Shown here: positions 14,470-20,740 of the stretch, piece by piece
How positions within the stretch are numbered: the first letter of the stretch is position 1
Layout of the letters: every line of letters begins with the position of its first letter
Source: Gemmatimonadota bacterium
GTDB taxonomy: Bacteria > Gemmatimonadota > Gemmatimonadetes > Palauibacterales > Palauibacteraceae
DNA: 64,000 nucleotides
Assembly: GCA_039584815.1 (NCBI GenBank)
Contig: JBDGXC010000006.1
Coordinates: 1,549-65,548 of the forward strand
Direction: 5' to 3'
The notes under the pieces: generated by a model
What the model saw: the letters and a program-made list of their open reading frames with translations, nothing else
The model's database searches: none
What the model was told of the DNA's origin: nothing
Position numbers and translations under genes: made by a program

Positions 14470-16682
14470 TGAAACGCGTCGAAGGTCTCTCCAAGCTCAC
14501 CGGCGGCGAGCGCTTCGTCGACGACCTCCCGGTCGACGAGGTCCTGTGGGGCGGAACGGTGCGTAGTCCGGCATCACGCGGACGCATTCGGGATGTCCGT
14601 TTCGGCTCGGAAATCGACTGGTCGGAGTTCGTGGTGGTCGACCATCGCGACGTCCCGGGGCACAACTCGGTGTTCCTGATCGAGGCGGATCAGCCGGTGC
14701 TGGCGGCCGACCGCGTCGCTCATGTCCACGAGCCGGTCCTTCTCCTGGCTCATCCGTCGCGTGACGCCGTGCGTCGGGCGGTGGCGGCGGTCGAGATCGT
14801 CGTGGATTCGGAGCCGCCCGTGCTCGACTTCCGTGCTCCTCCGCAGCCGGAGCACATCCAGTACGGGACCGACAATGTGCTGAAGAGTCTCCGGATCGAG
14901 AAAGGGGAGGCGGAGCGTGCTCTCGCGGACGCGCCGATTGTCGTGGAGGGAGTGTATGACACCGGTGCGCAGGAGCATGTGTATCTCGAGACGCAGGGCA
15001 TGCTGGCGTGGGAAGAGGGCGGGGTGATCACCGTCGCGGGCTCCATGCAGTGTCCGTACTACATCGTGGACGCGTTCCGTCACGCGCTGAACCGCCCGAA
15101 GGACGGGATCCGCATCATCCAGGCGGCCACGGGAGGCGGGTTCGGCGGCAAGGAGGAGTTCCCCTCCGGCGTCGCGCTGCATGCCGCGCTCCTGGCGCTG
15201 AAGGCCGGACGACCGGTGAAGCTCGTGTACGAGCGGGCCGAGGACATGGTCGCCACCACGAAGCGTCACCCGTCCCACGTGCGCCATCGGACGGGCGTCG
15301 ATCGGGACGGACGCCTCCTCGCGCAGGACATCGAGGTCGTTCTGGACGGAGGAGCGTACGTGACCCTGTCGCCGGTCGTCCTGAGCCGTTCGATCATCCA
15401 CGCGGCCGGTCCGTACGCGTGTGATCACGTGCGGATCCGGGGCCGGGCGATGCTCACGAACTCGCCCCCGTTCGGGGCGTTCCGTGGCTTCGGAGCCCCG
15501 CAGAGCCAGTTCGCGTGTGAGCGTCACATGGACCGCGTCGCGGCCGCGCTGAACATGGATCCGATCGAGCTGCGCCGGCGAAACGTGCTCCGGCCCGGAC
15601 AGACCACGGCCACCGGACAGACGATCGACGACGGGGCCGACCGGGAGGAAGTGATGGATCGCGCCCTCGAGCTGTCGGAATACCGGCAGCGGAGCGCGGC
15701 ACATGCCCGGTTCAACGCGTCGGACCTCACGCGGCGGCGCGGTCTCGGCCTTGCGACGTTCTTCCACGGCGCCGGGTTCACCGGAGCGGGCGAGGTGCAC
15801 CTCGACTCGGAGGTGCACGTCGCCGGGTTGCCGGACGGCCGAGTGGAGGTCCGAACGGCCAACGTGGAGATGGGCCAGGGAACGCTGACGGTGTTCACGC
15901 AGCTGGTCACCGATCGTCTCGGCCTCGACCCGGCCGACGTGACCATCGCGCCGGTCGACACGGCTCTCATCCCGGACAGTGGGCCGACCGTCGCGTCGCG
16001 CACGGTGATGGTCGTGGGAGGCCTGGTGGAGAGGGCCTGCGACGATCTCAGGCACCGGCTGGGTCTCGCGGCCGACGCCGCGGGCGGGTCCGTGACCGGT
16101 GCCATCCGATCCTGGCACGCGGCGCATCCGGCCGCGGATCTGCTGGGGAGCGCAAGGTACCGGAAGCCCGACGACATCGAGTGGGACGAGGAAACCTATC
16201 GGGGGGATGCGTACGGGGCCTACGCGTGGGGTGCGTACGTGGCCGACGTCGAGGTGGACATGAGGACGTTCGTCGTTCACGTGCGGGATTTCGTGGCGGT
16301 GCAGGAGGTCGGGCGGGTCCTGAACGACACGCTGGCGCGCGGCCAGATCCAGGGAGGCGTGGTGCAGGCCCTGGGATGGACCCTCCTCGAGGAATGCAAG
16401 TGGCGCGACGGGGCGCTGGAGAACGGGCAGCTCACCAACTATGTCATCCCGACGACGGTAGATGTCCCGTCGATACGAGTGGCCTTCCTCGAGGCCCCCT
16501 ATCCGCAGGGAGCCGGAGGCGCGAAGGGAATCGGGGAGCTGCCGTTCGACGGGGTAGCGCCGGCCGTGGCCAACGCGGTAGCCGCGGCGACGGGGGCCGA
16601 TCCGCGGTCGATCCCCCTGACGCCGGAGCGGTTGCTGGACATGCTGCTCGAACAGCCGGAGGGACAGGGGGCCGGGAGGTGA
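14470..16682 (+). CDS. Xanthine-dehydrogenase-family molybdopterin-binding large subunit (XdhA/CoxL-like)
   Basis: GTG 14470 with GGAGGG 5 nt upstream. Motifs AQEHVYLETQ, ATGGGFGGKEEF, FRGFGAPQSQFA and the C-terminal GAKGIGELP (catalytic Glu) match the XOR family. Confidence 0.85.
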
Positions 16683-18031: not shown

Positions 18032-20740
18032 ATGCCCGATCTGTCCTTCACTCTGAACGGTCGACCTTCGAAGGTCTCGTTCGAGGAGGGTATGAACCTC
18101 CTCGAAGTGCTGCGCGACGTGTGCGGGATCACGTCCCCCAAGGACGGATGCGCCCCTCAGGGAGCGTGCGGGTGCTGCACGGTGATGGTGGACGGTCGCG
18201 CGGTCCTCGCCTGCCTGCGCAAACCGGAGTCCGCGGAAGAACGCTCGGTCACCACGCTCGAGGGTGTCCCGGACGCGAAGCGAAGGCTCCTGGCGGATGC
18301 GTTCGTCCGCGAGGGAGGCCTGCAATGCGGTTTCTGCACGCCGGGCATCGTGGCGCGCGTGGCCTCTCTTCTGGACCGCGACGCGAACACCGACGAAGCC
18401 GGGGTGCGAAAGGCTCTGAACGGTCACCTGTGCCGCTGCACCGGCTATCAGCGCATCGTGGACGCGGTTCTCACGGCGGCCGACGGATGGGAGAGCGGGG
18501 CTCTGCCCGCCAACGACGGCCCGCGACGCTCGGACCTGTTCGGGTCGGCGTACGGCCTCGTGCGAGCCTCGGCCGATGGCGGCGACGGGATCGGCGGATC
18601 CGGAGCCCGATACTGCGGAGAGGAGCACACCCTGGGCGACAAGCCCTACGTGGCAGACATGACCCTCGACGGCATGCTGCACGGCGCCGCGGTCCTGAGC
18701 CCGCACCCGCGGGCCAAGGTGCTCGAGATCGACGCGACCGTCGCGCTCGAGATGCCCGGGGTGGAGCGGGTGATCACGGCGCGGGACGTGCCGGGCGAGC
18801 GTTTCGTGGGCCTCATCCGGAAGGACTGGCCGGTGTTCGTGGCGGTCGGGGAGACGACCCGCTGCGTGGGTGACGTGCTCGCCCTCGTCCTGGCCGATTC
18901 ACGGTTCCACGCCCGGCAGGCCGCCGCGGCGCTGGAAGCGGCGGTTCGCTTCGAGGTGCTCGAGCCGGTCGTCGATCCGCTGGAGGCCCTGCGGCCGGAC
19001 GCCCCGGACGTGCACGAAGAAGGCAACCTGCTCGACGTGTGCTCGTTCGGCCGGGGCGACGTGGACCGGGAGCTGGCGGGCTCGGCGCACGTCGTGGAGG
19101 GGACCTGGGTCACGCAGCGCGTCGAGCACGCGTTCCTGGAGCCCGAGGCCTGCCTGGCGGTACCGACCGGTGCTGGATCGTCCTCCGCGCCCGGTACGGC
19201 GGACGGGACGAACCTCAAGGTCTACACCCAGGGCCAGGGAGTGCACGACGATCAGGCACAGATCGCGGCGGTCCTCGGCCTGTCTGCCGAAGCGGTCGAA
19301 GTCGAGCTCGTCAGCAACGGCGGGGCTTTCGGAGGCAAGGAAGATCTCTCCATCCAGGCGCAGACGGCACTGGCGGCCTGGCTGTCGGATCGGCCCGTTC
19401 TCTCGGTCCTTACGCGCGAGCAGTCTCTTCGCCTGCACCCCAAGCGACATCCCATCACTCTTCGCTATACGGCGGGCTGCGACGCGGAGGGACACCTCAC
19501 GGCCGTACGAGCCCGAATCATAGGGGATACCGGAGCCTACGCTTCCGTCGGCGCCAAGGTGCTCGAGCGGGCTGCCGGCCACTCCTGTGGACCGTACCGC
19601 GTGCCTGCGGTGGACATCGAGGCCAGGACCGTCTACACGAACAACCCGCCGTGCGGGGCCATGCGTGGCTTCGGAGCCAATCAGGCGTCGTTCGCCATCG
19701 AGGGGGTCATGGACCTCCTGGCGGGTAAGGTCGGCATCGACGGGTACGACGTCCGCGAGCGTAACGTTCTCGCGCCGGGCGATCGCTTTGCCACCGGTCA
19801 GCGGATGACCGGAAGCTGCGGCATCCGGCAGACGCTGGAGGCCGTACGGGAGGTCTACAAGGAAGGCCGATACGCGGGCATCGCGTGCGGCATCAAGAAC
19901 ACGGGCATCGGCAACGGGATGGATGACTCGGGCCGCGTCCTGCTCCGTGTCGGCGAGGACGGTCGGATCGAGATCCTGACCGGATACACCGAGATGGGCC
20001 AGGGCCTGTTCACGGTGCTCCGGCAGGTGGTGCACCACGAAACGGGTCTCCCGCCGGATGTGATGACGGTCCGGACGGCCAGTGATCCGCGTGTCGTGTG
20101 CGGGATGACCACCGCGTCGCGTGCCACGGCCCTGCTCACGGCCGCGGGACGCGTGGCGGCGCAGAAGCTGGCCGCGGACTTCGCAGGCTCGTCGCTCCAA
20201 GATCTCGCGGGCCGGGAATACCACGGCGAGTACGTGTGCGACTTCACCACCGGCCCGGAGGCCGACGTCGAGGATCCCGTGACGCACGTGACGTTCAGCT
20301 ACGCCACGCAGGTAGTACTCCTGGACGAGGACGGGAAGCTGGAGCGAGTCGTGGCCGCACACGATGTGGGCCGAGCGATCAACCCGGTGCTGTGCGCAGG
20401 TCAGATCGAGGGTGGGGTGCACATGGGCCTCGGCTACGCGCTGTCCGAAGACTTTCCGTGCACGGGGGGCGTCCCGGACTCGCTTCTGCTGCGTGATCTC
20501 GGAATCCTGAAGGCGAAGGACACGCCGGAGATCGACGTCATCCTGCTGGAGGTCCCGGACGAGATCGGAGGGTATGGCTCGAAGGGAGTCGGGGAGATCG
20601 GTCTGGTCCCGACGGCGGGGGCGGTGGCGGCGGCGCTGCACGCGTATGATGGAAAGCGCCGCCTCCGGCTCCCGATGAGCGATGCACCGGCCGCCCAGCC
20701 GGCGGTTCCGAAGTCCCGGCGCCCGGCCGCGGCGTCCTGA
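18032..20740 (+). CDS. Fused [2Fe-2S]-molybdopterin hydroxylase (XdhD-like second Moco enzyme)
   Basis: 902 aa. The N-terminus has CG.C...C and C.FCTPG....LCRCTGY 2Fe-2S motifs. These are followed by a Moco domain with NGGAFGGKED, MRGFGANQASFA and VGEIGL (catalytic Glu). The architecture matches E. coli XdhD. Confidence 0.85.
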   Translation: MPDLSFTLNGRPSKVSFEEGMNLLEVLRDVCGITSPKDGCAPQGACGCCTVMVDGRAVLACLRKPESAEERSVTTLEGVPDAKRRLLADAFVREGGLQCGFCTPGIVARVASLLDRDANTDEAGVRKALNGHLCRCTGYQRIVDAVLTAADGWESGALPANDGPRRSDLFGSAYGLVRASADGGDGIGGSGARYCGEEHTLGDKPYVADMTLDGMLHGAAVLSPHPRAKVLEIDATVALEMPGVERVITARDVPGERFVGLIRKDWPVFVAVGETTRCVGDVLALVLADSRFHARQAAAALEAAVRFEVLEPVVDPLEALRPDAPDVHEEGNLLDVCSFGRGDVDRELAGSAHVVEGTWVTQRVEHAFLEPEACLAVPTGAGSSSAPGTADGTNLKVYTQGQGVHDDQAQIAAVLGLSAEAVEVELVSNGGAFGGKEDLSIQAQTALAAWLSDRPVLSVLTREQSLRLHPKRHPITLRYTAGCDAEGHLTAVRARIIGDTGAYASVGAKVLERAAGHSCGPYRVPAVDIEARTVYTNNPPCGAMRGFGANQASFAIEGVMDLLAGKVGIDGYDVRERNVLAPGDRFATGQRMTGSCGIRQTLEAVREVYKEGRYAGIACGIKNTGIGNGMDDSGRVLLRVGEDGRIEILTGYTEMGQGLFTVLRQVVHHETGLPPDVMTVRTASDPRVVCGMTTASRATALLTAAGRVAAQKLAADFAGSSLQDLAGREYHGEYVCDFTTGPEADVEDPVTHVTFSYATQVVLLDEDGKLERVVAAHDVGRAINPVLCAGQIEGGVHMGLGYALSEDFPCTGGVPDSLLLRDLGILKAKDTPEIDVILLEVPDEIGGYGSKGVGEIGLVPTAGAVAAALHAYDGKRRLRLPMSDAPAAQPAVPKSRRPAAAS

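Follow-up and report, generated by a model that had tools for sequence, protein, structure and literature searches.

Gene content and layout of the locus

The stretch analyzed here, 64 kb of contig JBDGXC010000006.1 (hereafter the window), has a GC content of ~63–71% across most of its length, and its nearest relatives are metagenome-assembled genomes of Gemmatimonadota. On the forward strand, 11 tightly packed genes (14469–30639) form one operon, at the head of which lies a pair of molybdoenzymes: a split enzyme of the xanthine dehydrogenase (XDH) type, encoded as separate molybdenum cofactor (Moco), iron-sulfur (FeS) and flavin adenine dinucleotide (FAD) subunits (XdhL, XdhS and XdhF), followed by a single protein, hereafter FUS, in which FeS and Moco domains are fused. 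Several start and stop codons overlap by 4–8 nt, including 4-nt overlaps at 16679 (XdhL/XdhS) and 17188 (XdhS/XdhF), and the other gaps are at most 19 nt, with 13 nt before the FUS gene at 18032. The original prediction had proposed this arrangement for 14470–20740, and its coordinates and domains are confirmed by Pfam; the motifs that it listed (FRGFGAPQ, MRGFGANQ, IGELP, VGEIGL, GGGFGGK and GGAFGGK) are all present in the translations. The features of the locus are:

13812–14294, minus strand: guanine deaminase of the CDA fold, 160 aa, divergent from the operon (Pfam dCMP_cyt_deam_1, E 1.5e-25)
14469–16682, plus strand: XdhL, molybdopterin-binding large subunit of the split XDH-type enzyme, 737 aa (Pfam Ald_Xan_dh_C, i.e. 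the hammerhead domain, with MoCoBD_1 and MoCoBD_2; E 2.5e-80 and 8.3e-64)
16679–17191, plus strand: XdhS, [2Fe-2S] small subunit, 170 aa (Pfam Fer2 and Fer2_2; NCBIfam pucE and XdhC-type matches, E ~1e-40; both cysteine motifs in the translation)
17188–18018, plus strand: XdhF, FAD-binding subunit, 276 aa (Pfam FAD_binding_5, E 2.8e-40, and CO_deh_flav_C)
18032–20740, plus strand: FUS, two [2Fe-2S] domains fused to a Moco domain, without FAD domain, 902 aa, predicted 2,8-dioxopurine dehydrogenase (DOPDH)-like urate 6-dehydroxylase (Pfam Fer2, Fer2_2, hammerhead and MoCoBD_1/2; NCBIfam TIGR03311)
20755–22881, plus strand: mini-YgfK, 708 aa, predicted 2,8-dioxopurine reductase (match to E. coli YgfK; AlphaFold and Foldseek)
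22901–24319, plus strand: HyuA/allantoinase-like cyclic amidohydrolase, 472 aa (TIGR03178, 372 bits, cut-off 358; E. coli HyuA, 30%, E 2e-54)
24316–25704, plus strand: SsnA-like aminohydrolase, the marker enzyme of the pathway, 462 aa (NF005540 SsnA, E 1e-121, 407 bits, cut-off 444)
25701–27164, plus strand: PLP1, CysK-like pyridoxal phosphate (PLP) enzyme of fold type II with extensions, 487 aa (Pfam PALP; weak cysK-type NCBIfam matches)
27157–28401, plus strand: M20 hydrolase of the YgeY family, 414 aa (NF009555 YgeY, 445 bits, cut-off 321; E. coli YgeY, 45%)
28398–29393, plus strand: carbamoyltransferase resembling ornithine carbamoyltransferase and YgeW, 331 aa (Pfam OTCace_N and OTCace; E. 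coli YgeW, 36%, E 8e-61)
29398–30639, plus strand: PLP2, threonine-synthase-like PLP enzyme with an N-terminal Cys-rich motif, 413 aa (Pfam PALP, E 6e-78)

The two molybdoenzymes are likely to catalyse the opening steps encoded by an operon that takes purines to pyruvate along the 2,8-dioxopurine (reductive uric acid) route, as a urate-forming XDH and a FAD-less, DOPDH-like urate reductase. Screening of the window with Rfam (gathering thresholds) and for tRNAs gave no match, hence no purine or Moco riboswitch upstream, and a promoter and terminator scan of 13000–14600, of a kind uninformative for this phylum, gave none either.

Active sites of the two molybdoenzymes

The XdhL/XdhS pair and FUS both have the hallmarks of the xanthine oxidase/molybdenum hydroxylase family, i.e. 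a hammerhead with MoCoBD_1/2, two [2Fe-2S] domains and the glutamate equivalent to bovine E1261, and the E-values of the domain matches put chance out of the question. The active-site loops of the two Moco proteins read GAFRGFGAPQ (XdhL) and GAMRGFGANQ (FUS), neither of which is the VAYRCSFR of form I CoxL or the AYRGAGR of form II. Against the CO dehydrogenase model TIGR02416 they score 195 and 136 bits, far below the cut-off of 991. With these XDH-type loops, and with the equivalents of E1261 and of the glutamate following FGGK (E802) kept, the earlier assignment of both proteins to the xanthine oxidoreductase family rather than to the CO dehydrogenases is borne out. The same prediction had seen the substrate-positioning arginine in the F/MRGFG motifs, which has to be corrected. 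Since it lies two residues ahead of the stacking phenylalanine (bovine F914), this arginine is the equivalent of bovine R912, and the R880 equivalent is found 32 residues upstream. The XdhA proteins of E. coli and of a gut-metagenome locus share the R912-type arginine, which occurs in the CO dehydrogenase loop (AYRCSFR) as well. Nevertheless, the true R880 equivalents are conserved too, within LSRSIIH in XdhL (R307, corresponding to R. capsulatus R-B310) and within LERAAGH in FUS (R513, corresponding to the arginine of 'IMERALFH' in rat XDH).

The best PDB match for XdhL is chain B of R. capsulatus XDH (E 1e-73). A residue-by-residue alignment with this chain reveals that XdhL retains the equivalents of Q197, E232, R310, F344, F459/T460 and E730, which correspond to bovine Q767, E802, R880, F914, F1009-T1010 and E1261. 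XdhL has, in other words, the purine site of a canonical XDH, its FeS and FAD partners are encoded by translationally coupled genes, and its A1078 column is V. None of the cut-offs of the NCBIfam equivalogs pucD, XdhA and xdhB is reached, the scores being about half of the cut-offs: pucD comes first with 448.7 bits (cut-off 783.65), followed by XdhA with 378 bits. By its active site XdhL is thus XDH-like, but it is no curated equivalog. In E. coli XdhA, E. coli XdhD and the gut-type XdhA (13417–15690 of the gut-metagenome locus L082), Gln occupies the E802 column and Ala or Asn the R880 column, so that the sites of these enterobacterial and gut 'XDH' proteins are less canonical than that of XdhL.

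The divergent guanine deaminase matches B. subtilis guanine deaminase (GuaD; 1WKQ/1TIY) over its full length (E 1e-43) and is found upstream of XdhL in nine related loci, all of which carry XdhL, XdhS and XdhF. It would feed xanthine to the split XDH, and together the four proteins look like an add-on 'upper' module leading from guanine, hypoxanthine and xanthine to urate.

The architecture of FUS is common to 78 orthologues of 850–960 aa, in which all eight [2Fe-2S] cysteines are invariant; the fusion is therefore genuine and no assembly artefact. FUS passes the NCBIfam model TIGR03311, named 'selenium-dependent xanthine dehydrogenase', with 889.9 bits (cut-off 830.45) over residues 5–886 of 902, and is not a member of the XdhD family TIGR03313 (190.6 bits, cut-off 1101.9). 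Alignment with rat XDH shows that the equivalents of E802, R880 and E1261 are retained; across the 78 orthologues these three are invariant, as are those of R912 and F914. Among solved structures, FUS comes closest to D. gigas aldehyde oxidoreductase (best full-length match, E 2e-74) and E. barkeri nicotinate dehydrogenase, as might be expected of an enzyme that acts on another N-heterocycle or on an aldehyde and merely lies near purine genes. An R880-type arginine is no proof of purine specificity, since nicotinate dehydrogenase and D. gigas aldehyde oxidoreductase possess one too. The more telling residue in the alignment is the E802-equivalent glutamate, which FUS keeps and which is F in the aldehyde oxidoreductase and L in nicotinate dehydrogenase. 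Moreover, the synteny of FUS with purine-catabolic genes is kept across phyla, and DOPDH itself clusters beside the nicotinate dehydrogenases, so that we give a substrate outside the purines only the faintest chance. E606 of E. coli XdhD, proposed to orient urate, was considered as a further test and proved unusable, as it sits in an XdhD-specific insertion and has no counterpart in FUS.

As to the DOPDH-like role, FUS has the appropriate architecture and context, being a FeS-Moco fusion without FAD domain encoded beside genes for a YgfK/UacX-type reductase and SsnA; relatives from the gut and from other Bacillota have such surroundings too. The columns that distinguish DOPDH from bovine xanthine oxidoreductase (F1009V and A1078T/S) were calibrated on a gut-metagenome relative with V and S at these positions, which serves as a stand-in for C. 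sporogenes DOPDH. The A1078 column is T in FUS, which fits the signature, and among the 78 orthologues it is T in 62 and W in 16. Several observations weigh against a DOPDH-like FUS. Its F1009 column is N and not the V highlighted in the DOPDH paper, and it is only 38% identical, over the full length, to the fused gut-metagenome enzyme (the representative of a 5,380-member cluster). The orthology of FUS and DOPDH would rest on family membership, synteny and a stand-in sequence, TIGR03311 carries the name of a xanthine dehydrogenase, and the E802/R880 pair is typical of xanthine-oxidising enzymes. Furthermore, tblastn and Pfam revealed no selD, yqeB, yqeC, mocA or carbamate kinase gene (yqeA) and no YgeX orthologue in the 64 kb, so that a need for selenium, the regaining of ATP from carbamoyl phosphate and the last deamination step are inferred. 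Finally, besides XDH, the operon encodes no electron donor for the two reductive steps.

The name of the equivalog, the retained E802, R880 and E1261 equivalents and the lack of DOPDH's V in the F1009 column would also suit a pair in which both enzymes are oxidative and act on successive purine positions, like the purine hydroxylase and xanthine dehydrogenase of purinolytic clostridia, FUS then being a true (selenium-dependent) xanthine dehydrogenase. We regard this as unlikely. The gene for FUS consistently heads the YgfK/SsnA/HyuA/YgeY operon, including in loci without another molybdoenzyme nearby, where nothing else could make the 2,8-dioxopurine used by YgfK-type reductases. XdhL, for its part, already has the full canonical XDH site, and a variant uricolytic cluster occurs in enterococci according to a 2025 paper. 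The sequential conversion of hypoxanthine to xanthine and urate by both enzymes, as originally envisaged, is thus less likely than urate formation by XDH followed by removal of the 6-oxo group by FUS. On the other hand, the urate-reducing direction and the YgfK-like neighbour as a partner, which had been named as well, fit the evidence.

The FAD subunit and the supply of electrons

A single FAD-subunit gene had been predicted, and no second one was found. With four FAD-subunit queries (XdhF of the window, E. coli XdhB, E. coli YgfM and gut XdhB), 17188–18018 is the sole tblastn match in the 64 kb, the YgfM query giving no match in the window at E ≤ 1e-3, and Pfam reveals no further FAD_binding_5 protein among 32 open reading frames (ORFs) outside the operon, some ORFs beyond ~54 kb being unscanned. 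This had led to the proposal that FUS shares the subunit; XdhF would then dock both on XdhL/XdhS and on FUS and link the two molybdoenzymes to NAD(H). Indeed, XdhF provides the operon's sole module of the flavin or NAD type, a gap of 13 nt separates its gene from that of FUS, and neither FUS nor mini-YgfK has an NAD(P)H module of its own; in E. coli, YgfM, a FAD subunit encoded separately, is co-purified with XdhD, which likewise fuses FeS and Moco domains (PMC12507026).

In order to follow the FAD gene, 80 related loci were fetched and the operon genes mapped onto them; counts refer to the 45 loci in which the fused gene is flanked by 5 kb or more in either direction, the fetched flanks reaching up to 10 kb each. 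Of these, 19 lack a FAD-subunit gene within the flanks retrieved around FUS, 10 have it adjoining FUS as in the window, and in the remaining 16 it lies 2.4–8.6 kb away, each time beside its own split FeS gene. Every mapped FAD gene adjoins a split FeS gene, and nearly always a split Moco gene too, and none follows FUS alone. The core order FUS, mini-YgfK, HyuA, SsnA, PLP1, YgeY, carbamoyltransferase, PLP2 is kept in ~20 Gemmatimonadota loci, in many of which FUS is the first gene and the split XDH is absent, XdhL, XdhS and XdhF lying directly upstream in a subset only. In four loci without XDH (L010, L012, L017 and L020) the genes just upstream of FUS are on the opposite strand, so that FUS opens the operon there. 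One locus, L003, was considered as a case of sharing because FeS and FAD genes stand beside FUS with seemingly no split Moco gene; XdhL is nevertheless present at 7800–9986, broken into three ORFs, probably by assembly frameshift errors rather than by real decay. With this exception removed, the counts show that the FAD subunit travels with the split enzyme and not with FUS.

Added to this, FUS belongs to TIGR03311 and not to the XdhD family TIGR03313, native C. sporogenes DOPDH is free of FAD and does not use NAD(P)H, and the gut cluster has a dedicated ferredoxin gene after the fused gene. Sharing of the flavoprotein therefore seems to us very unlikely: nothing in the compared sequences calls for it, and the related loci lend it no support. 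A maturation gene of the XdhC/CoxI/YqeB-like type, ~500–900 bases directly upstream of FUS, was noted in eight loci (L033, L039, L042, L043, L044, L054, L057 and L068), which are from Acidobacteriota and related bacteria; the window and the Gemmatimonadota loci do not have it.

The protein encoded after FUS, mini-YgfK, is a shortened YgfK. It matches E. coli YgfK over residues 7–428 (37.5%) and 905–997 only, and its 395 bits against TIGR03315 (cut-off 835) do not make it a full member of the family. It is made of a flavin mononucleotide (FMN) barrel resembling those of dihydropyrimidine dehydrogenase (DPD) and dihydroorotate dehydrogenases (DHODHs), two [4Fe-4S] sites and a C-terminal beta domain. 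The barrel was recognized by fold: in the AlphaFold model (mean predicted local distance difference test score, pLDDT, 81.9) the N-terminal 400 residues correspond to the FMN barrels found in the top Foldseek matches, pig dihydropyrimidine dehydrogenase and DHODHs. By sequence, Pfam gave no DHO_dh match at E ≤ 0.001, and a profile search against PDB sequences returned ferredoxin motifs only. The cysteines of the two [4Fe-4S] sites (C519/522/525/529 and C579/582/585/589) are invariant in 39 homologues. The GltD-like FAD/NADPH module was found neither in the window nor in the Gemmatimonadota loci. The ~120 close homologues (P0122–P0240) are all 645–757 aa long, from which it follows that the short YgfK is a stable family. 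Based on sequence and model, mini-YgfK is predicted to work like the FMN/Fe-S part of YgfK.

The Acidobacteriota relatives have full-length YgfK; the form with the NADPH module occurs in L040, L044, L047, L050, L058, L073, L077 and others, a set that partly overlaps the loci with the XdhC/YqeB-like gene. In public annotation, relatives of mini-YgfK carry the labels 'putative selenate reductase', 'glutamate synthase' or '4Fe-4S binding protein', and metagenome surveys have taken YgfK to mark selenium cycling (PMC8857189). We reject the 'selenate reductase' reading, as selenate was neither required nor stimulatory in the published evidence; the short YgfK of these phyla is more likely a reductase of purine catabolism.

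Taken together, the following route can be proposed. XdhL, XdhS and XdhF would form a self-sufficient three-subunit XDH that converts hypoxanthine and xanthine to urate, part of the xanthine being supplied by the divergent guanine deaminase, and the electrons would reach the FAD subunit of this XDH by way of the enzyme's own pair of [2Fe-2S] clusters. FUS, as the counterpart of clostridial DOPDH (XdhAC), would run the hydroxylase reaction in reverse and remove the 6-oxo group of urate to give 2,8-dioxopurine. A low-potential carrier (for instance ferredoxin or the neighbouring Fe-S protein), and not a flavin subunit, would deliver the electrons to the two [2Fe-2S] clusters of FUS. With its FMN barrel and two [4Fe-4S] clusters and no NADPH module, mini-YgfK would then reduce 2,8-dioxopurine. 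SsnA and the HyuA-like enzyme would open the rings, the carbamoyltransferase and YgeY would remove the ureido groups, and a PLP enzyme would release pyruvate and ammonia. The sequences themselves show the domains, the catalytic residues, the families, the conserved order of the genes and the missing linkage of FAD subunit and FUS, whereas the substrates, the direction of the reactions, the electron donors and what PLP1 and PLP2 do are inferred.

Because XdhF is the operon's only NAD(P)H-binding module and FUS and mini-YgfK have no donor of their own, one could also imagine XdhL, XdhS, XdhF, FUS and mini-YgfK as one electron-conducting assembly. In such an assembly, the two to four electrons released on the way from xanthine or hypoxanthine to urate would pass via the Fe-S clusters or the single FAD subunit to both urate-reducing steps, an internal purine dismutation without free pyridine nucleotide; we hold this to be highly improbable. 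Another possible source lies 9–12 kb downstream of the operon, where a two-gene 2-oxoacid:ferredoxin oxidoreductase is encoded on the minus strand (39661–42734; alpha subunit TIGR03710, 605 bits; beta subunit of the PorB_KorB type). It could supply reduced ferredoxin from pyruvate, the end product of the pathway.

Of the downstream enzymes, the SsnA-like protein is 35% identical to E. coli SsnA and 37% to gut SsnA. PLP1 is kept in the core operon of the related loci with 62–79% identity. The carbamoyltransferase reaches none of the NCBIfam equivalog cut-offs; another enzyme of this kind, a conventional ornithine carbamoyltransferase that passes TIGR00658 with 415 bits, is encoded on the minus strand at 8984–10069, 4.4 kb upstream of the operon. 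PLP2 passes TIGR00260 (183 bits, cut-off 167), its closest model, NF006050, remains below its cut-off, and its match to E. coli YgeX is weak and limited to 83 residues; we regard it as a candidate stand-in for YgeX. In two relatives, a carbamate kinase with 45% identity to E. coli YqeA lies beside the cluster (L022, ~20100–21030; L027, ~8940–9870), so that an ATP-yielding branch exists in some relatives.

Comparison with known purine-degrading systems

The reductive uric acid (2,8-dioxopurine) pathway was worked out in 2025 for gut Firmicutes and E. coli only, and neither Gemmatimonadota nor Acidobacteriota is listed in the SsnA network of the 2025 paper. With the present locus and its ~80 relatives, the pathway would extend to Gemmatimonadota and Acidobacteriota of environmental origin, found in sediments and soils. 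The tandem looks like the XDH and DOPDH pair expected for this route, and both molybdoenzymes are ordinary members of known families. The main value of the analysis is thus corrective, an expected enzyme pair standing in place of subunit sharing. What is new is modest, namely a Gemmatimonadota/Acidobacteriota version of the pathway with a short YgfK devoid of the NADPH module and with no yqeB, yqeC or selD in the window. The lack of NAD(P)H modules on the reductive enzymes and of selenium genes nearby bears on the electron donors used outside the gut, on the need for selenium and on the annotation of these genes.

The closest parallel is found in C. sporogenes, whose DOPDH (XdhAC) is a FeS-Moco fusion without FAD that makes no use of NAD(P)H and has its nearest kin among the nicotinate dehydrogenases; urate is formed in this organism by an XDH of its own (Liu et al., bioRxiv 10.1101/2025.04.24.650524). 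The window shares with it the FAD-less fusion encoded beside ygfK, ssnA, hyuA, ygeY and ygeW-type genes, the affinity to nicotinate dehydrogenases, the A1078 to T/S signature and the separate XDH. It differs in the N of the F1009 column, in having no yqeB, yqeC, selD or mocA nearby and no ferredoxin gene after FUS, and in its host, a high-GC environmental bacterium of the Gemmatimonadota type and not a gut Firmicute. The gut-metagenome locus L082, whose genes match the published uric acid cluster, has the order SsnA, YgfK, fused enzyme, ferredoxin, XdhA, XdhB (FAD), XdhC, YqeC, MocA; its opposite strand encodes carbamate kinase, YgeW and YgeY. As in the window, a fused enzyme without FAD is paired there with a split XDH that has a single FAD subunit. 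Such a tandem, with an XDH of the R. capsulatus type, is also present in Ca. Hydrogenisulfobacillus. The ferredoxin gene of L082 comes immediately behind that of the fused enzyme (12586–13077), and its product, 163 aa with several 4Fe-4S (Fer4) domains, is a candidate physiological electron donor of DOPDH; the window operon contains no small ferredoxin gene of this kind.

In E. coli, XdhD-YgfM reduces urate to 2,8-dioxopurine, which YgfK reduces further, SsnA and HyuA open the rings, and YgeW, YgeY and YgeX complete the route to pyruvate (Li et al. 2025, PMC12507026). The window follows the same pathway logic and has most of the downstream enzymes, related to SsnA (35%), YgeY (45%), YgeW (36%) and HyuA (30%). 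In contrast, E. coli XdhD belongs to TIGR03313, is 25% identical to FUS, has Q and N in the E802 and R880 columns, comes with a dedicated FAD subunit, YgfM, and uses NADH. Likewise, mini-YgfK lacks the NADPH/FAD module of E. coli YgfK, and YgeX and YqeA have no orthologue in the window.

R. capsulatus XDH and bovine xanthine oxidoreductase have the purine-site residues of XdhL as well as FeS and FAD partners, whereas in the window the order is Moco, FeS, FAD, as three separate proteins, and the A1078 column of XdhL is V. For FUS, D. gigas aldehyde oxidoreductase (MOP), a single-chain FeS-FeS-Moco enzyme without flavin domain, provides a precedent for working without a FAD subunit, although it has F at the E802 position and its gene context is not related to purines. 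Finally, C. difficile UacX and clostridial PydA combine, as mini-YgfK does, an FMN barrel with [4Fe-4S] clusters and no NAD(P)H module, the barrel of mini-YgfK being of the YgfK lineage and followed by an extra C-terminal beta domain. With neither protein carrying an NAD(P)H module, FUS and mini-YgfK together resemble the ferredoxin-type pair of C. difficile XdhD and UacX (PMC12507026).

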